This document shows positions 3-54,921 of a DNA stretch of 64,000 nucleotides, piece after piece (within the stretch, counting starts at the first letter, position 1; each line of letters opens with the position of its first letter). Both the position numbers and the translations under genes were made by a program. Location of the stretch: positions 1-64,000 of IMG/VR virus record IMGVR_UViG_3300037067_009442; one strand, given 5' to 3'. The DNA is from a virus (taxonomy: Duplodnaviria > Heunggongvirae > Uroviricota > Caudoviricetes). Below the pieces are notes generated by a model. That model ran no database searches, was not told the origin of the DNA, and saw only the letters and a program-made list of their open reading frames with translations.

Positions 3-386
3 TTCTACGTTGTTCGGTTGGAGGAGCCTATCGAAGGTGACTTCGGACCCCTAGAGGGGATATTTCTCCCTGAAAGTAGCCTCTCAGATAGGTACCAAGT
101 TGAGAAATGGGACCTCATTGGGTTCTACGTTTACACCTACGAGAGTGAAGAGGAGGACCTCAAGGCAATTGACATCCAGGTTCTCGTAGGAGAAGGAGAT
201 GACGGTCGATGGTACGTCAAGATTACGGATGAGATTGATGGGGATGAACTCTGGGAGGAGTCCTTTGACACCTTCGAGGAGGCCAAGGAAGAAGCTGAGG
301 ATCACATCTCAGCAAGTAATGAGTCGGAGGTACTAGGAGAGACTGCCGTCGCCTACATTGAGAGACTCAATAAACGAGTAGATTGA
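3..386 (+). CDS. acidic hypothetical protein, probably 5'-truncated by window edge
   Basis: Frame open from the window start; very D/E-rich. Confidence 0.7.
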   Translation, partial: FYVVRLEEPIEGDFGPLEGIFLPESSLSDRYQVEKWDLIGFYVYTYESEEEDLKAIDIQVLVGEGDDGRWYVKITDEIDGDELWEESFDTFEEAKEEAEDHISASNESEVLGETAVAYIERLNKRVD

Positions 387-421
387 GTTGAGATCTGAGG
401 TACTCGTACGTAGGATAGATC
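387..421 (+). promoter_or_regulatory. class A promoter (TTGAGA-17-TAGGAT), leaderless
   Basis: gttgagatctgaggtactcgtacgtaggatagatc then ATG at 422; motif repeated ~11x. Confidence 0.8.
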
Positions 422-3619: not shown

Positions 3620-5194
3620 ATGGGATTACAGCCAGCAGGTAAGATTGGACTTTTCATCCTAGTCACAGGGATCGCCGGTGGCGGTCTTTGGACCCTCCGC
3701 AAGTACATCGCCCCTGAGGGTCAGAAAGCGGAGAACATCACTGGCCTCATGGCAAGTGGAGAAGGCTCCTCTGAGAGTGCCCCAGGAACCCCAGGGAAAG
3801 CAACCCCAGCTGTCCACAACAAGTGCTTGGAGGTTGGCGTGGTTACCTGGGGCGGGTACGCCGGTGGTCAGTACTGGAACGGTGGGTTCAAGGACAATCC
3901 TAACTCCAGGTTCCGTAAGGATGGGATCTGCGTAAACTTCAAACTCCTGGATGACTTCGGAGCCTCTCGAGCAGCCTTCCGCTCAGGGGAGATGGATCTC
4001 ATGTGGGTCACCATGGATGCTTTCCCCACGGAGAGTGGTACATTCGACGGGGGTGCTCGGTTCCTCTTTCAAGCGGATTGGTCTCGCGGTGGCGATGCCA
4101 TCGTGGTGAAGAAGGGGATCACCTCGGTAGCGGGTCTCGCTGGGAAGAGCATTGCGGTAGCTGAGGGAACTCCCTCGCACACCTTCTTGCTGTGGATGTT
4201 GGATATGGCTGGGCTTTCCATCCTAGACGTCAACATCGTCAAACAGGACTCGGCTATCGTTGCAGCTGCATCCTTTAAGAGTGGGCAGGTAGACGCAGCT
4301 GTTGTTTGGTCTCCCGCCGATGCTGAGTGTGTTGCTGCAGTCTCTGGATCCTCGGTACTAGTCAACACCAAAAAGGCCGCCAACATCATCGCAGATGGCT
4401 TCATGGTTATGGAGTCCACCTACCAACGTCGGAAGGGTGAACTGACCAAACTGGTTCAGGGTTGGTTGAAGGGTTCGGCAGAGATCAATGGATCTGAGCA
4501 AGCCAAGAATGAAGCGGTCAAGATCTTGGTAGATGGGTTTGGCTCCTCTTCATCCCCTAAGGATTGCCTCCAAGCCATTGACAATGTTCGCCTCACGACC
4601 TACGGGGACAACCTTGACTTCTTCGGGCTCAGCCCGGCCTACAAGGGCGTAAAGGGCCAAGACCTTTACGAGAAGATGTCCATCGTTTACGGCAAGCTAC
4701 ACCTGGCTGAGAAGCCTCTCCCGTGGGCTCGGGTTGTGGATACCGACTTCATCAAGAGCCTAGGTCTTGCCAGTGACAAGGGTTCCGCCCCTGAAGCAGT
4801 CCCGACGTTCAAGGCTCCGACTCAGCAAGTGATCTCAGCTCCCGCTATTGCAAGCAAGCCGATCAAGGTGAGCTTTGCTACGGCAAGCTCAACCCTGGAC
4901 GACAACGCCAAGGTGCTCATCGACATGTTGTTTGTGGAGCAAGCTAAGGCCTTTCCAACGTCGCATATCCGCATTCAGGGTAACACGGACTCTACCGGAA
5001 GTGCCTCCAATAACCTCCGAATCAGCAAGGAACGTGCCGAATCGGTGGTTAGCTACTTGGTCACGAAGCACAGCTTTGACCGGAACCGCTTCGTAGCAAG
5101 TGGTAGAGGATCAGATGACCCTGTCTGCCATGAGCAGACTCCAGAGTGCTTTGCTCAGAATCGCCGAACCGACTTCGAGATCTTGGACAAGTAA
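3620..5194 (+). CDS. NMT1/THI5/SsuA-like ABC substrate-binding protein fused to OmpA-like peptidoglycan-binding domain
   Basis: N-terminal TM anchor; DWSRGGDAIV, GKSIAVAEGTPSH, VDAAVVWSP; C-terminal IQGNTDSTG..N..IS..RA..V..YL and NRRTDF. Confidence 0.9.
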   Translation: MGLQPAGKIGLFILVTGIAGGGLWTLRKYIAPEGQKAENITGLMASGEGSSESAPGTPGKATPAVHNKCLEVGVVTWGGYAGGQYWNGGFKDNPNSRFRKDGICVNFKLLDDFGASRAAFRSGEMDLMWVTMDAFPTESGTFDGGARFLFQADWSRGGDAIVVKKGITSVAGLAGKSIAVAEGTPSHTFLLWMLDMAGLSILDVNIVKQDSAIVAAASFKSGQVDAAVVWSPADAECVAAVSGSSVLVNTKKAANIIADGFMVMESTYQRRKGELTKLVQGWLKGSAEINGSEQAKNEAVKILVDGFGSSSSPKDCLQAIDNVRLTTYGDNLDFFGLSPAYKGVKGQDLYEKMSIVYGKLHLAEKPLPWARVVDTDFIKSLGLASDKGSAPEAVPTFKAPTQQVISAPAIASKPIKVSFATASSTLDDNAKVLIDMLFVEQAKAFPTSHIRIQGNTDSTGSASNNLRISKERAESVVSYLVTKHSFDRNRFVASGRGSDDPVCHEQTPECFAQNRRTDFEILDK

Positions 5195-26184: not shown

Positions 26185-26499
26185 ATGCCCATTCCAATCT
26201 ACCAAGAAGAAGACGATGTTGATCTCCCTCAAGAGAGGTGCTGTATCTGCCGGGAAACTACCTCTTGGTGGTCTTCCTTACCCGACCGGAAACCCGGTGA
26301 GCAGGTAGCGATTTGCCCTCATTGTGCGTCTAGGTGCGAACCCACTGAGGTCCCTACCAAGAAGGAGTGGTGCCGACGTGAGGACATAGCAAAACACCCT
26401 ACTATCAAGGACATAGCTTTGGGGCTTGACAAAAACTACCCTCCGGCTCCTGTGGTACCTCCCAAGAAGTCCACCAAGAAAACCACCAAGAAAAGTTGA
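26185..26499 (+). CDS. Zn-finger-like hypothetical protein
   Basis: CCIC...CPHC; start MPIP after class A-like site at 26152. Confidence 0.65.
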   Translation: MPIPIYQEEDDVDLPQERCCICRETTSWWSSLPDRKPGEQVAICPHCASRCEPTEVPTKKEWCRREDIAKHPTIKDIALGLDKNYPPAPVVPPKKSTKKTTKKS

Positions 26500-26529
26500 G
26501 ATCCTAGCCCCTCATACGTAGGATAGATC

Positions 26530-28432: not shown

Positions 28433-28821
28433 CAGATCCCGAAGAGAAAAAAGAGAATGTAACTACCCCGGAGCACTTTGAGCTATTCAAAACAGAGTGC
28501 TTGCGGCTGTGGAAGCTATGGAAGATCTCTGGTTGGCGTCTAGAGTTCCGACATGAGGGTATTGAAGGTCAACCTCAAGGGATGGCGGGTGCTGAATCTG
28601 ATCCAACTCAGCACCGTACTCGAATCTTCTTGTCTACAGTCTGGCCTGACCATACCCCAGTAACTGACGACGAGATCCTCATCACCGCACGTCACGAGGC
28701 CATTCACGGACTACTCGGGCCTCTCTCCACGTTGGCTCAATCTCGGTTCCTAACTGATAGCGAACTGTGTGCAGCGGAGCACGAAGTACTCAACGTACTG
28801 GATGGGGTCCTTCCAAAGTAA
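28429..28821 (+). CDS. putative HExxH metallopeptidase-like protein
   Basis: RHEAIHGLL plus downstream Glu. Confidence 0.55.
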   Translation: MTDPEEKKENVTTPEHFELFKTECLRLWKLWKISGWRLEFRHEGIEGQPQGMAGAESDPTQHRTRIFLSTVWPDHTPVTDDEILITARHEAIHGLLGPLSTLAQSRFLTDSELCAAEHEVLNVLDGVLPK

Positions 28822-28831
28822 ATCACCTAAC

Positions 28832-29110
28832 CTAGAAGGTTAGGTGCCACCGAACCTCAAGGTCAATCATCATTTCTTCCCGTGACACCCCATGACCCTC
28901 ACAGTCCTTACAGGCTGGGGGGCTTTCTGGGCTCCCATCAGGATCATACCTTAGCTCGTAGTCATCAGCGAAGGGAGTAGGCTCCTGCCCGGATCCACCA
29001 CACCGTGGGCAATCCCGATTTAGAGCAGTCACGTCTACAATAGGAGCTGTAGTTGGAGGTAGCCTCACCGGACGTACGAGAGTCCAGTACTCTTCAACTT
29101 CGTCGGGCAT
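28832..29110 (-). CDS. DnaJ-type zinc-finger protein with N-terminal DEVEEYW tag
   Basis: CPRCGGSG...CKDCEGHG; MPDEVEEYWTLVRP. Confidence 0.75.
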   Translation of the reverse strand: MPDEVEEYWTLVRPVRLPPTTAPIVDVTALNRDCPRCGGSGQEPTPFADDYELRYDPDGSPESPPACKDCEGHGVSREEMMIDLEVRWHLTF

Positions 29111-29127
29111 TGACTAACCTTACCTGA

Positions 29128-29270
29128 ATAGCGAGATGGAGTCTCCAGGGATCAGCTGGAGACTCCCCGGCCCGTTTTTACCGCCTACGGCCATCTCTTC
29201 GGGTGTCTCCCCACCGTATGTACCTTAGGTGGGACGGCGGCTGGCTTTCAGTACACCCCAGCCAGCTTTG
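29128..29270 (-). ncRNA. candidate structured ncRNA A
   Basis: TTGACA-17-TAGGGT promoter (29277-29305); several stems; 11-bp terminal hairpin 29138-29166. Confidence 0.6.
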
Positions 29271-29312
29271 AGACCGACCCTACCGTAAGGATCCTGGATT
29301 GTCAACCCTCTT

Positions 29313-29534
29313 CTAGGGTTTCCAGTAGAGGACATCCCAATCGTAACTCACCTCAGAGTTATCGTCGGCGGTCCTCCAGAAGCAGTCATCTTCATCCACG
29401 TGGTACAGGAGAGCCTCGACAATTGTACCCTTCGAGCAACCCCTGAGGAGAGCCCGAACGAAGATACCAACGTCAGGAGCCCGCTCCTTGACGTCGATCC
29501 ATCCATTCGAAAGGTAGTGATTGGGGTTCAGCAT
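29313..29534 (-). CDS. small phage protein (DUF551-like W..V..R.P pattern)
   Basis: WIDVKERAP...V..W; start at ATG 29534 after the hairpin. Confidence 0.6.
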   Translation of the reverse strand: MLNPNHYLSNGWIDVKERAPDVGIFVRALLRGCSKGTIVEALLYHVDEDDCFWRTADDNSEVSYDWDVLYWKP

Positions 29535-29540
29535 GTACCT

Positions 29541-29700
29541 ACAAAAGCGAAGTGGCCACCAGCGATCAACTGGTGGCCCCGAACCGTTCGGCTTTTTTAC
29601 GGCCCACAACAGTCACTTCTCGGGTTCCTCAGACTGGGTCACGTTCACCCGTACCGGGGCGTATCTAGGGCTACCACTGTTACGTGTGTGCCTTAGGTTG
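29541..29700 (-). ncRNA. candidate structured ncRNA B (related to A)
   Basis: TTGACC-18-TAGGGT promoter (29706-29735); shared motifs with A; 9-bp hairpin 29554-29578 then TTCGCTTTT. Confidence 0.6.
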
Positions 29701-29763
29701 ATCGAACCCTAGCAGACCTTCTTGGTTGGGGTCAAGAGGGAAATGGTTACTTGATCACCAGAC

Positions 29764-30180
29764 TCAACGGTTTATCTCCGAGCTCATGGCCTCCACAATC
29801 GATAGCAAGACCCTCTGGGGTACCGCGGTCGACTGGAGCATCAATCGTTGCCGATCCTCCTCAAAGCCGAGCTCAGAGTACCACAACGTTAGCCAAGGGG
29901 GGTTCGGGTAGGCAAGCTTGCCGTAGAGTACAACATCTTCTGCCCAATGACGCATCTCCACAATCTCGGTTGAGGTCAGATCTTCCCATAGTTGGGTATT
30001 CTTGTTTACTCTCATGGTTGGTCCTAAACTCCCGCAGTCAAGCGGTGGTACCTGGAGACTCAGACATTCTGATCTGTTCCTCCAAGAGGTGTTTGTAGTG
30101 ACGGATCTCGGCGTCAAGGCCTCTGTAAGAGCACCATTTATGATGCCCCTCCATTGATACCTGAATGGTGGTTCGATCAC
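29764..30180 (-). CDS. hypothetical protein (true start likely MRVNK near 30015)
   Basis: C-terminal portion is protein-like; listed start overlaps the upstream gene. Confidence 0.5.
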   Translation of the reverse strand: MIEPPFRYQWRGIINGALTEALTPRSVTTNTSWRNRSECLSLQVPPLDCGSLGPTMRVNKNTQLWEDLTSTEIVEMRHWAEDVVLYGKLAYPNPPWLTLWYSELGFEEDRQRLMLQSTAVPQRVLLSIVEAMSSEINR

Positions 30181-31417: not shown

Positions 31418-31490
31418 GCTCTATCCTACGAACGAGGGGGCCAAATCTCAACCAGAAAGGTGAGTATTCTTTACTTGGTGTACTTAGGGT

Positions 31491-33576: not shown

Positions 33577-34850
33577 TTGCAAGAACCTAACTTCCGGGTC
33601 ATAATAGGTTCCTTGATCTCTCTTTCACATAAGATCCGTCTCTACCCTAATAAGGAGGCAATGAAGTACTTGGCCAAGTCGGCCGGTACCTCAAGGTTCG
33701 CCTATAATTGGGCATTAGCTCGATGGAAAGAGAAGTACCTAGCTGGTGAGAAAACTTCAGCTTATGGTCTGGACAAGGAATTCAACGCCCGCAAGGGCTC
33801 TGACTTCCCTTGGACCTCCGAGGTTTCTAAATGGGTGACTCAGAAGGCTATTCAAGATCTTGGTGACTCTTTCAAGCGGTTCTTCAAGAAGCTCTCTAGG
33901 TATCCTAGGTTCAAGAAGAAAGGATCTTCTCACGACTCCTTCTATATCAACTCGAACCACCTAAGGATCTCCGGTAAGTATCTGAAGCTTCCGAAGCTTC
34001 AGGGTCATATCAAAATGGCTCAGACCCTCAGGTTCAAGGACGGTGAGGTTAAATTTGCTGTGATCTCCCGAGATTCCTGTGGGGATTGGTACGCTTCTTT
34101 TAGCTTTGAGATCTCAGAAGGGTCTTATGTCTACCCACACAAGTGCGAAAACCAAGCAGTTGTAGGGGTTGACTTAGGGATCAAAACGTTAGCTACTTGC
34201 TCCGATGGTACAAAGTTCGAGAACCCAAAGCCTTTGGCTCGGGCCCAGCGCAAGCTCCGAAGGAGCCAACGTCGCCTTGCCAGGAAAGTTAGGGGTTCCA
34301 AGAACCGAGCCAAAGCGAAGCTTTTGGTAGCTAGGGTTCATCGGAGGGTAACCAGAGTCAGGTTGGATTCAATCCATAACCTAACTTCTTGGTTGGTCAA
34401 AACCTTCCGGTTCATTGGGATCGAAGATCTGAACGTTCAAGGGATGATCAAGAACCACAAGCTTGCACGGGCGTTAGCCGATGCAAGCTTCGGTGAGATC
34501 CGTCGACAAACCGAGTATAAGTCGAAGCTATCTGAATCTCATGTAGTGGTAGCTGATCGGTTCTATCCGTCCTCGAAGAGGTGTTCCGATTGTGGAGAAA
34601 CCCTAGAGAGGCTGGACCTATCCGTGAGGGAATGGTCGTGCCCCTCTTGTGGAGTCATTCATGATCGTGATGAGAATGCCTCAACTAACCTAAGACTCGT
34701 CGCCGAGAGGTACTCGGAGACTATAAACGCTTGTGGAGAAGCTGTAAGGCCTGTGCAACGCCGCAAGGCGGGGCAGAGGCGAGCTTCATTGAAGCAAGAA
34801 TCAGTGAATCAGGTAGGAGAGGTTCTTACTTGAAACCTAAATGCCAAGCA
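33577..34850 (+). mobile_element. solo tnpB element (IS200/IS605/IS607-related, no tnpA); ends approximate
   Basis: Own TTGCAA-17-CATAAT promoter; 3' hairpin at the gene end; second copy at 42.8 kb. Confidence 0.65.
33613..34833 (+). CDS. tnpB: RNA-guided endonuclease TnpB (copy 1)
   Basis: N-terminal HTH_OrfB, RuvC GVDLG / IEDL / DRDENA intact, CxxC...CxxC; TTG start aligned with copy 2. Confidence 0.95.
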   Translation: MISLSHKIRLYPNKEAMKYLAKSAGTSRFAYNWALARWKEKYLAGEKTSAYGLDKEFNARKGSDFPWTSEVSKWVTQKAIQDLGDSFKRFFKKLSRYPRFKKKGSSHDSFYINSNHLRISGKYLKLPKLQGHIKMAQTLRFKDGEVKFAVISRDSCGDWYASFSFEISEGSYVYPHKCENQAVVGVDLGIKTLATCSDGTKFENPKPLARAQRKLRRSQRRLARKVRGSKNRAKAKLLVARVHRRVTRVRLDSIHNLTSWLVKTFRFIGIEDLNVQGMIKNHKLARALADASFGEIRRQTEYKSKLSESHVVVADRFYPSSKRCSDCGETLERLDLSVREWSCPSCGVIHDRDENASTNLRLVAERYSETINACGEAVRPVQRRKAGQRRASLKQESVNQVGEVLT

Positions 34851-42759: not shown

Positions 42760-44034
42760 TTGCTCTCCCCTCAACTCTAAGTTATAATAGGTTTCCTTGA
42801 TTTCTCTTTCTCACAAGATCCGGCTCAACCCTAATCGGGAGGCAATAATTTACTTGGCCAAGTCGGCCGGTACCTCAAGGTTTGCCTATAATTGGGCATT
42901 AGCTCGATGGAAAGAGAAGTACCTAGCTGATGAGAAGCCTACGGCTTTCCGCCTGAACGCGGAATTCAACGCCCGCAAGGGCTCTGACTTTCCTTGGACT
43001 TCCGAGGTATCCAAGTACTGCTGCCAGCAAGCCATTCTTGATCTTGGTGACTCCTTCAAGAGGTTCTTCAAGAAACTCACCAAGTACCCTAGGTTCAAGA
43101 AGAAAGGGGTCTCTCGTGATTCCTTCTACCTAGGGACCGATGTCATCAAGGTATCAGGGAAGTACCTGAAGCTTCCGAAGCTTCTTCAACCAATCAAGAT
43201 GGCTCAGGAGATCCGATTCCCCGAAGGTCGGATCCTCTCTTGTACAATCTCCAGGGACTCAGTAGGGGATTGGTACGCTTCATTCTCGATAGAGATCTCA
43301 GAAGGATCTTATGTCTACCCGCACAAGTGCGAAAACCAAGCAGTTGTAGGGGTTGATCTAGGGATCAAGACACTAGCTACTTGCTCCAATGGTACGAAGT
43401 TCGAGAACCCAAAGCCCTTGGCTCGGGCCCAGCGCAAGCTCCGAAGGAGCCAACGTCGCCTTGCCAAGAAGGTGAAGGGTTCTAAAAACCGAGCCAAAGC
43501 GAAGCTTTTGGTAGCTAGGGTTCATCGGAGGGTAACCAGGATCAGGTTGGATTCAATTCACCAAATGACATCCTGGTTGGTCAAAACCTTCCGGTTCATT
43601 GGGATCGAAGATCTGAACGTTCGAGGGATGATCAAGAACCACAAGCTTGCACGGGCGTTAGCCGATGCAAGCTTCGGTGAGATCCGTCGACAGATTGAAT
43701 ATAAATCGAAGCTATCTGAATCTCATGTAGTAGTAGCTGATCGGTTCTATCCGTCCTCGAAGAGGTGTTCCGATTGTGGAGAAACCCTAGAGAGGCTGGA
43801 CCTATCCGTGAGGGAATGGTCGTGCCTCTCTTGTGGGGTCATTCATGATCGTGATGAGAACGCCTCGATTAATCTAAGACTCGTCGCCGAGAGGTACTCG
43901 GAGACTTTAAACGCTTGTGGAGAAGCTGTAAGGCCTGTGCAACGCCGCAAGGCGGGGCATAGGCGGGCTTCATTGAAGCAAGAATCAGTTCATCTCATGG
44001 GGGTTAACTCATGAGACCTGAGTTCCGTCCAACG
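42760..44034 (+). mobile_element. solo tnpB element copy 2; ends approximate
   Basis: TTGCTC-17-TATAAT promoter; 3' hairpin tctcatg...catgaga. Confidence 0.65.
42797..44014 (+). CDS. tnpB: RNA-guided endonuclease TnpB (copy 2)
   Basis: Same motifs as copy 1; RuvC D/E/D intact. Confidence 0.95.
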   Translation: MISLSHKIRLNPNREAIIYLAKSAGTSRFAYNWALARWKEKYLADEKPTAFRLNAEFNARKGSDFPWTSEVSKYCCQQAILDLGDSFKRFFKKLTKYPRFKKKGVSRDSFYLGTDVIKVSGKYLKLPKLLQPIKMAQEIRFPEGRILSCTISRDSVGDWYASFSIEISEGSYVYPHKCENQAVVGVDLGIKTLATCSNGTKFENPKPLARAQRKLRRSQRRLAKKVKGSKNRAKAKLLVARVHRRVTRIRLDSIHQMTSWLVKTFRFIGIEDLNVRGMIKNHKLARALADASFGEIRRQIEYKSKLSESHVVVADRFYPSSKRCSDCGETLERLDLSVREWSCLSCGVIHDRDENASINLRLVAERYSETLNACGEAVRPVQRRKAGHRRASLKQESVHLMGVNS

Positions 44035-53289: not shown

Positions 53290-54921
53290 ATGCCCGACTC
53301 AGAGATCCTTCTAGGTGATTGTCTTGCTGTACTGAAGACACTCGAAGCTGACTCCTTCGACTCAATGGTGACCGACCCGCCGGCCGGTATCGCCTTCATG
53401 AATAGTGAATGGGATACTTACAAGATGGATGCCTTTGAGGATATGCTCACCAAGGTATTCCTCGAGGCCTACCGAGTATTGAAGCCAGGAGCTCATGTCC
53501 TTGTATGGTCTATCCCAAGGACGGGGCATCGCACTGCTTGTGCTATTGAGCGGGCTGGGTTTGCACCTCGAGATGCCCTCGACAATGTGAAGGACCGCAG
53601 CCCTGAAGTTCAAGCCTTCCTCGAGAGTCTCACTGAGGAGCAGGTCGAGCTGCTTGTGCGAGCTGGACCTGCTGATGCCTTCGTGCTCCACATGTTTGGT
53701 CAGGGTTTTCCCAAGTCAATGAACGTGGGGAAAGCTATTGACAAGCTCAAGGGGGCTAAACGAACTAATTCCCTTGGGCTAAAGCCGGGGCACGAGCACT
53801 TAGAGAGTGCTGGCCTAGGATTCAAGAGTGCTTCCGCTGAGGGGTTCAGTAGGCCTTGGATGAAGGATCAGGAAGCAGTAGAGCAGTACCATCAGAAGAT
53901 GGCACCAGCGACCCCAGAGGCTGCTCAATGGGAGGGTTTTGGGACTGCACTCAAGCCAGCGGTTGAGACGTGGTGGCTAGCTCGGAAGCCCCTTCAAGAG
54001 GACACGGTTGCGGAGCAGGTACTAGCTACTGGGACAGGGGCTCTCAACATTGACGGTTGTCGTGTAGGTTATACTAAAGAAGTCCCAGGTAGTGCTAATA
54101 GTCATACCTCAGGTATAGTCTTAAGTGGATCAGTAGATGGTACTCTTAGAAATGAAACAGGAGAAGAGAGCGGCCATAACCCTAACATCGGTAGGTGGCC
54201 TGCAAACGTTGTTCTCCAACATGGGCCTGATTGTAAGCTGGTTGGAAAGAAGAAGATCAAAGGTAAGAAGCCGGAGAAGTCAGAGAAACCTACCGAGAAC
54301 AACCTTTATGGTAGCTATGGAAAGCGAAGTTTGAATGGATTCTATGCCTCTGAGGACGGTACAGAACCCGTTGATGCCTGGGAATGCGCCTCAGGTTGCC
54401 CTGTTAAAACCCTAGATGAGCAGAGCGGGAACCGTCCTGGAATGTCTGGGGGTGGTACTCATAGCAAAGACTATGAGGGTGGTTTGTTTGGTGGCATTGA
54501 TAGCGCCAATACAGCGAGAAACGACTCAGGGGGGGCGTCAAGGTTCTTCAATCAGTTCGAACCCGACATTGAAGCTCCTCCGTTCTTCTACACAGGGAAG
54601 ATCACCTCCTCTGAACGCAAAGAAGATCTTGAGGAAGAGGAGTTAGTCAACAAGCACCCTACGGTCAAATCTAAGAAGCTCATGCGTCACTTGGTCCGGT
54701 TGATCACTCCTCCCAAGGGGAGAGTTCTAGACCCCTTCTGCGGGTCAGGGAGCACTATCGTTGCTGCTATCGAGGAGGGGATGGTTGGTACTGGCATCGA
54801 ACGAGACCCAGGATTTCACGAGATTGCCACCAAACGGGTACAATCAGCCCTTCAGAAGCAAGAAACAGTCAAGCAAGCTCAAGAAGCTTGGGATCTAGCC
54901 TTCGGATTGGAAAGCGAGTAA
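53290..54921 (+). CDS. DNA N4/N6 methyltransferase (beta class)
   Basis: GDCL, TDPPA (motif IV variant), HPTVK, VLDPFCGSGST (motif I). Confidence 0.9.
   Translation: MPDSEILLGDCLAVLKTLEADSFDSMVTDPPAGIAFMNSEWDTYKMDAFEDMLTKVFLEAYRVLKPGAHVLVWSIPRTGHRTACAIERAGFAPRDALDNVKDRSPEVQAFLESLTEEQVELLVRAGPADAFVLHMFGQGFPKSMNVGKAIDKLKGAKRTNSLGLKPGHEHLESAGLGFKSASAEGFSRPWMKDQEAVEQYHQKMAPATPEAAQWEGFGTALKPAVETWWLARKPLQEDTVAEQVLATGTGALNIDGCRVGYTKEVPGSANSHTSGIVLSGSVDGTLRNETGEESGHNPNIGRWPANVVLQHGPDCKLVGKKKIKGKKPEKSEKPTENNLYGSYGKRSLNGFYASEDGTEPVDAWECASGCPVKTLDEQSGNRPGMSGGGTHSKDYEGGLFGGIDSANTARNDSGGASRFFNQFEPDIEAPPFFYTGKITSSERKEDLEEEELVNKHPTVKSKKLMRHLVRLITPPKGRVLDPFCGSGSTIVAAIEEGMVGTGIERDPGFHEIATKRVQSALQKQETVKQAQEAWDLAFGLESE

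Follow-up and report, generated by a model that had tools for sequence, protein, structure and literature searches.

Paralogous structured 5′ leaders in front of two unrelated genes as candidate cis-regulatory elements of a giant phage

The window analyzed here comprises the first 64 kb of an IMG/VR virus record of 228,619 bp from a giant groundwater-type phage, with a CheckV completeness of 45% and a GC content of ~51%. Its minus strand carries a block of small genes (28.8-32.1 kb), with plus-strand genes on both sides, in which two related non-coding units, A and B, are found. The unit B leader (29535..29705, minus strand), which extends roughly from the inferred transcription start and stops immediately in front of the ATG, precedes a 73-aa gene with weak DUF551/phrog_924 likeness (29313..29534, minus strand). 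The unit A leader (29111..29276, minus strand) precedes a 92-aa gene, an orphan with two CxxCxGxG zinc-knuckle motifs (28832..29110, minus strand). Upstream promoters of the same block lie at 31451 and 30335, and a terminator-like hairpin with a 10-bp stem and the tail ATTTACTTTG closes the block (28824..28846, minus strand). The sole orthologue of unit B is carried by L036, a 1,921-bp JGI contig. Homology between the phage and L036 begins at the start of the 83-aa gene (29764-30015), upstream of which the genes of the two differ, placing a mosaic boundary at ~30012 (minus strand)/L036:1189. Six related giant-phage records in IMG/VR (63-452 kb) show 60-64% identity on the 524-aa protein encoded at 3620-5194; four of the six are rated at least 90% complete, and the completeness of these related records suggests a full genome of ~400-450 kb for the source phage.

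Both units follow a promoter-like site on the minus strand, consisting of TTGACC, an 18-nt spacer and TAGGGT for unit B (29706..29735) and of TTGACA, a 17-nt spacer and TAGGGT for unit A (29277..29305). Only three sites of the form TTGACN-16..18-TAGGGT occur in the whole 228,619-bp record. The equivalent of the unit B site in L036 reads TTGACT-18-TAGGGT (L036:1466-1495), with 7 of the 18 spacer bases changed, and the TTGACA of unit A is kept 2 nt past the stop codon of the 73-aa gene, after which the contig ends. The candidate promoter of each unit is a consensus-level match, with hexamers that are kept in L036.

Comparison of the unit B leader with L036 revealed gaps of 6, 4, 2, 1 and 2 columns, whereas the 73-aa gene aligned without gaps; since the indels in the leader are mostly not multiples of three, the leader is non-coding. 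Identity was 87-94% in the 3′ core and 88% in the 73-aa gene, compared to 56% in the first 45 nt of the leader. This 5′ end contains the 16-mer ACCUAAGGCACACACG (29683..29698, minus strand), which the preliminary description had listed among the shared elements. The 16-mer is indeed present in both units, and these are its only two copies in the record (ACCTAAGGYACAYACG at 29230-29215 and 29698-29683), but L036 retains no more of it than a CACCUUAG core, and it thus lies outside the conserved core of the leaders.

The 16-mer of unit B is followed by helix P0 (29607..29682, minus strand), in which UAACAGU (29682-29676) pairs with ACUGUUG (29613-29607), and inside P0 by hairpin H2, in which GGGU (29650-29647, minus strand) pairs with ACCC (29639-29636). 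Relative to L036, P0 shows one double change and two G-U single changes, and H2 shows one double change (G-C to U-A). The core domain of unit B (29549..29619, minus strand) consists of helix P1 (GAAGUG 29619-29614 with CACUUC 29554-29549), an A-rich joining strand that begins GGCCGUAAAAAAGCC, and helix P3 (29578-29570 with 29562-29554), which is capped by the loop UUGAUCG (29569-29563). P0 crosses P1, implying either a pseudoknot or alternative folds. The unit ends with the tail UCGCUUUU (29550-29543), the SD sequence AGGUA (29540-29536) and the ATG (29534-29532), together spanning 29532..29550 on the minus strand.

Unit A carries a 5′ hairpin (29266-29240, minus strand), followed by a second hairpin (29233-29210, minus strand) that holds the 16-mer in its loop. 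Its core domain (29133..29197, minus strand) has the same order of elements as that of unit B, with P1 formed by GAGAUGG (29197-29191) and CCAUCUC (29139-29133), a joining strand containing GGCGGUAAAAA, and P3 formed by 29166-29156 and 29148-29138 around the loop CUGAUCC (29155-29149). Its tail UCGCUAUU (29134-29127), SD sequence AGGUAAGGU (29125-29117) and ATG (29110-29108) occupy 29108..29134 on the minus strand. The promoter-like sites, the 16-mer, the GGCSGTAAAAA motif, the hairpin centre and the TCGCTWTT tail that the preliminary description had placed on the minus strand were all recovered in place, as were the 5′ hairpin of unit A and the closing helix taacagt/actgttg of unit B, which is P0.

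Units A and B are true paralogues. Pairwise blastn aligned their 3′ parts with 64 of 97 identities, and a covariance model built from unit B and L036 only (R1; two helices, P1 and P3, chosen by eye) gave a single significant match in the 64-kb window besides unit B, namely unit A (36.3 bits, E 6.4e-7), so that the proposed relatedness was recovered by a model built without unit A. All 14 pairs of unit A were standard under R1, with P1 reading GAGAUG with CAUCUC. Aligning the three copies gave 97.6% paired cells and double compensatory changes in 6 of the 14 pairs (two in P1 and four in P3), statistics that are weak given three sequences, two of them close orthologues, in an alignment fitted to the model. 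Slid controls, in which the partners were shifted by 1-3 columns, gave 0 double-change pairs and 35-55% pairing. One A·C mismatch occurs in P3 of L036. These compensatory changes bear out the earlier claim that the units are structured RNAs.

The conserved 3′ core comprises ~100 nt and includes P1, the A-rich joining strand GGCNNUARAAAA, P3, the tail UCGCUWUU and the SD sequence AGGUA; with the block GAG..ACCCGA in front of P1, this is also the order of the conserved blocks. P1, a long-range helix, and P3 stack coaxially over 14-16 bp, with a large bulge on one side. The P3 loop UGAUC is invariant and its stem comprises 9-11 bp. The hairpin centre CCAG-NTGATCN-CTGG occurs twice only in the record, with outer stems that are different yet complementary, and GGCSGTAAAAA likewise has two copies only. 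When the core from P1 to P1′ was folded alone, P1 and P3 were present in the minimum free energy structure of all three copies (z -2.2 for A, -2.8 for B and -1.9 for L036); the folding energies of the whole leaders were unremarkable (z = -1.3 and -1.1). The antisense cores gave z = -3.3 and -3.0, indicating that folding energy does not tell the strand. An extended helix between the A-tract and the U-tract, predicted by RNAalifold from B and L036 and including the SD sequence, was set aside as the conserved fold in favor of P1, being invariant and poor in unit A. No alternative pairing of the anti-SD or antiterminator type conserved in all three copies was found; ACCU anti-SD words are present in all three by inspection of the sequence, giving only 4-5 bp.

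The genes behind the leaders encode proteins that are unrelated to each other. The 73-aa protein has homologues at 92, 66, 61 and 48% identity, and its gene differs from that in L036 by mostly silent changes and no indels. The start codon is fixed by a 2-nt indel immediately before the ATG, together with the mostly silent changes after it; judged by this comparison, the 73-aa gene is real. The 92-aa protein matched DnaJ_CXXCXGXG with E 7.5e-5, below the Pfam cut-off, and had no homologues among 5.8 billion proteins. It bears a weak likeness to Q-like antiterminators in PHROG (E ~1e-3) and to Anti-TRAP clusters in the Atlas (score 0.90); these PHROG and Atlas likenesses, including antitermination, are below threshold and cover the zinc knuckles only, and we treat them as leads.

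The spacing of the core relative to these genes argues for the nature of the units. P1 lies 14 nt from the ATG in B and 22 nt in A, the core ends 7-9 nt before the SD sequence, and in both units the stretch between P1 and the ATG holds the SD sequence and no promoter. With no further promoter available to the genes, the units must, as far as sequence can tell, be paralogous cis-acting 5′ leaders of mRNAs and not separate RNA genes. The preliminary description had found no credible ORF in the units, which holds for their interior, but where each of them ends, a real gene starts, with its SD sequence and ATG (at 29534 and 29110). It had also proposed discrete ncRNA genes of ~140 and ~160 nt (sponge, antitoxin or guide), a proposal at odds with this spacing. 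The tail TCGCT.TT is probably not a transcript end; its first bases are part of helix P1, which the preliminary description had missed.

Searches for additional copies of the leader were consistently negative. Rfam 15 gave no match at the gathering score in the 64-kb window, in line with the earlier suggestion of an undescribed RNA family, and at E<=10 over 28700-30100 it gave only noise (Pab19, 20.7 bits vs 55; mir-922, 20.5 vs 95). A covariance model from all three sequences (R2) found only units A and B in the whole 228-kb record and nothing at E<=1 in the six related giant-phage records; covariance-model scans, a check that had been suggested earlier, showed the pairs to be kept in A (R1) and yielded no further copies (R2). 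IMG/VR scans returned 19 matches for the 16-mer, all in unrelated contexts and mostly in one conserved coding region, 13 matches for the loop plus TCGCT, all unrelated, and 21 matches for TGATC..TCGCTWTT..AGGTA, of which R2 accepted 0. A scan of JGI metagenomes for ACCCGA..TGATC..TCGCTWTTNWRG gave 90 matches, with none accepted by R2 among the 80 listed, and blastn and tblastn against INPHARED (GenBank phages) gave nothing. No loci related by the 92-aa, 73-aa or 83-aa protein were found in IMG/VR or the metagenomes. More distant homologues of the 73-aa gene lie 20-40 nt from the upstream gene or overlap it, leaving no leader, and those homologues of the upstream 83-aa gene whose flanking DNA was covered are followed by gaps of <=85 nt, too short for one. 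Together, the searches and the leaderless homologues indicate that the promoter-plus-leader cassette is confined to this phage and one close relative; because distant homologues of the 73-aa gene do without it, the leader is, on this comparison, dispensable for that gene as such.

Several other assignments were considered and rejected. A tRNA- or tmRNA-like reading conflicts with the loop (UGAUC vs the UUCRANY T-loop) and with the 9-11 bp stem, and ARAGORN found no tRNA or tmRNA; ribozymes (hammerhead, twister, pistol) and CRISPR-repeat-like elements, considered by eye, have no support from ARAGORN or Rfam. A TnpB omega-RNA or guide RNA was dismissed because the TnpB genes are at least 4 kb away on the other strand, and word-7 blastn of the units gave only chance-level matches of 10-12 nt inside these genes. 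Other hairpins with a TGATC loop in the record (187714, 204725 and 49258) are inside or antisense to ORFs and unrelated.

The leader motif is an undescribed, lineage-restricted, structured cis-acting leader that belongs to no described family and is represented by three copies. As the downstream proteins are unrelated, the two genes most likely respond through their common leader to one shared input, and autoregulation by either product is less likely. The explanation we favor, with about even confidence, is a lineage-restricted cis-regulatory 5′ leader read by one shared factor, the mechanism of which we infer as follows. Each leader would be transcribed from its own σ70-like promoter, or by read-through from the upstream class-A promoters, and the transcript would continue into the small downstream gene. 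P1 would close the A-rich joining strand, with P3 stacked directly on P1. The invariant loop on a covarying stem, together with the fixed A-rich strand, looks like a protein-binding site, and the shared input would be a putative protein, from the phage or its host, that has the UGAUC loop and the A-rich strand as its recognition site. When bound or folded, the domain might then block or open the adjacent ribosome-binding site, since P1, which is 14 nt away from the ATG in B and 22 nt in A, sits at the edge of the 30S footprint. Alternatively, transcription could be attenuated at the U-rich run after P1 (GCUUUUGU in B and the weaker GCUAUUCA in A). With either outcome, the leader is probably a shared on/off control of two genes and not a free-standing small RNA.

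Such leaders have counterparts among known systems. Protein-dependent leaders common to several operons include those of RAT/LicT-SacY, TRAP and PyrR, and translational operators include those of T4 RegA and the MS2 type. The leaders described here resemble these in placing one element before unrelated genes, with a hairpin next to a U-rich run or ribosome-binding site, but differ in lacking a conserved terminator/antiterminator overlap and any sequence likeness. They share with riboswitches the 5′ UTR position, a closing P1 next to expression signals and conserved unpaired bases; unlike riboswitches, which are widely spread, they have no Rfam 15 match and occur in three copies, within one lineage, before genes without a metabolic link. 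Giant phages are mostly known from metagenomes, and the two leaders bear on how such phages time the expression of their many small accessory genes, pointing to two unrelated genes as probably regulated together once transcription is under way. A factor that reads UGAUC, if found, would make post-initiation control in these phages accessible to study and supply a small portable regulatory part.

An unlikely alternative to a cis-regulatory leader is that transcription mostly stops after the P3/P1 stack and releases RNAs of ~140-165 nt that function in trans as decoys, sponges, antitoxins or antisense RNAs, with the genes expressed by read-through. The promoter of each unit, the combination of a variable 5′ part with a conserved 3′ scaffold between B and L036, and the self-complementary GAUC loops, which could form kissing contacts, would suit free small RNAs. 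The hairpin of unit B with ACUUCGCUUU passes a simple terminator scan, marginally, but that of unit A was not flagged, and the bases after P3 pair in P1, forming its 3′ strand, not a U-tract. Moreover, the genes lack another promoter, making the RNA also their leader, and the complementarity check proposed in the preliminary description came back empty for the phage genome, with best matches of 13 nt at E ~0.5, which is not significant. A trans role for a prematurely terminated leader is possible.

Somewhat less likely still, the P1 and P3 stack could be a processing or stability element, cut by RNase III or a phage endoribonuclease, that separates cistrons and fixes mRNA half-lives. Early mRNA of T7 contains intercistronic RNase III sites, and the units are similar in being repeated hairpins of ~60-70 nt with an internal loop between small early phage genes. 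They also lie between cistrons of one co-oriented block with upstream promoters at 31451 and 30335, and are repeated and paralogous, with stems that are continuous on the 3′ side. Unlike the T7 sites, however, the units have their own promoters, which would make cistron separation unnecessary, and their stack is shorter (14-16 bp), with a long A-rich bulge on one side and a loop that does not vary. RNase III substrates typically comprise about two helical turns, a norm that the stack falls short of, and processing would leave the invariant loop and the A-rich strand unexplained.

We give a low probability to processive antitermination sites like HK022 put or lambda nut, in which the RNA, alone or with a small protein, would let RNA polymerase pass downstream terminators. 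HK022 putL/putR and lambda nutL/nutR are cis-acting antitermination RNAs; put sites consist of two adjacent stem-loops and nut sites of boxA, with the sequence GCUCUUUA, and a 15-nt boxB. As with put and nut, one phage carries two paralogous structured RNAs, each just past a promoter, with covarying stems and a conserved loop, here a loop that is invariant and a stem that is not. The tail GCU(A/U)UU resembles boxA, but in 5-6 of 8 bases, and the weak Q-like and Anti-TRAP look-alikes of the 92-aa zinc-knuckle protein, which would fit a role in antitermination, span the Cys knuckles only and fall below threshold. In contrast to put and nut, the units show no sequence or architectural match, abut ribosome-binding sites and are in tandem on one strand of one short operon, which has a single terminator-like hairpin downstream (28846-28824), and no arginine-rich N-like gene was found.

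A more speculative proposal, to which we likewise assign a low probability, is that P1, the A-rich strand and the UGAUC hairpin are the receptor of a new phage regulatory system, a portable promoter-plus-leader module placed before accessory genes. One possibility within this proposal is that the small zinc-knuckle protein encoded directly downstream recognizes the RNA to bring about processive antitermination or anti-attenuation, and another is a scaffold with an exchangeable 5′ segment that acts in trans on host or phage RNA.

Less probable again is that the units are a recently duplicated promoter-leader cassette without function beyond a promoter and a stabilizing hairpin. The restriction to one lineage (the six related giant phages lack the element, as do the loci of more distant homologues of both flanking genes) is what a young duplicate would show; however, there are ~7 independent compensatory changes in two helices while the loop and joining-strand bases are fixed, a pattern suggesting that the fold has been under selection ever since the duplication.

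The least probable alternative, that the plus strand is functional and the units are antisense RNAs or plus-strand terminators within the minus-strand block, draws on terminator-like sites with a T-run at 29155-29171 and 29579-29591 (plus strand), on antisense cores whose folding is no worse than that of the sense cores and on the P3 A·C mismatch of L036, which would be G·U on the other strand, but it is opposed by the lack of a plus-strand promoter-like site nearby, the minus-strand placement of the conserved -35/-10 hexamers and of all flanking genes, the three G·U pairs in P0 of L036 that would become A·C mismatches, and the broken T-run in L036. As a separate observation, the A-runs of both leaders read as a plus-strand hairpin and T-run that could stop antisense transcription entering the minus-strand block.

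The two leaders also stand out against the other expression signals of this genome. The class-A promoter element of ~37 nt, TTGAGAT..CCCTCrTACGTAGGAT AGATC ATG, is present in ~27 copies in the whole record, with the ATG exactly 5 nt after TAGGAT; examples in the window are at 388-416(+), 26496-26524(+), 30335-30307(-), 31451-31423(-), 35480(+) and 36068(+). It either drives leaderless mRNAs or is a promoter in which TAGGAT also serves as the SD sequence, and its CCCTCA..TA..GGA part recalls promoters of the T3/T7 type. If these ~27 promoters yield leaderless mRNAs, two long related leaders are an exception in this genome.

Another long leader of ~165 nt, at 38678-38482 on the minus strand of the window, lies behind TTGACAATC-..-TAAGGT and precedes a gene for a 622-aa GHKL-like ATPase, with the hairpin GACCCTCACAAAAGTCAGGGTC just before the start; R2 revealed no relation of this leader to units A or B. 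TAGGGT or TAAGGT promoter-like sites other than those of the units, some with long leaders (38678 itself, 123765, 101034 and 204091), bear no likeness to the units.

Two TnpB-type genes in the window, at 33577-34833 and 42797-44014 (plus strand; phrog_506, E 1e-119 to 1e-122), are unrelated to the two leaders. The window also encodes a DNA methyltransferase of 543 aa (53290-54921). GATC is ~1.8-fold over-represented in the whole record, with 1574 occurrences observed compared to 892 expected from base composition.
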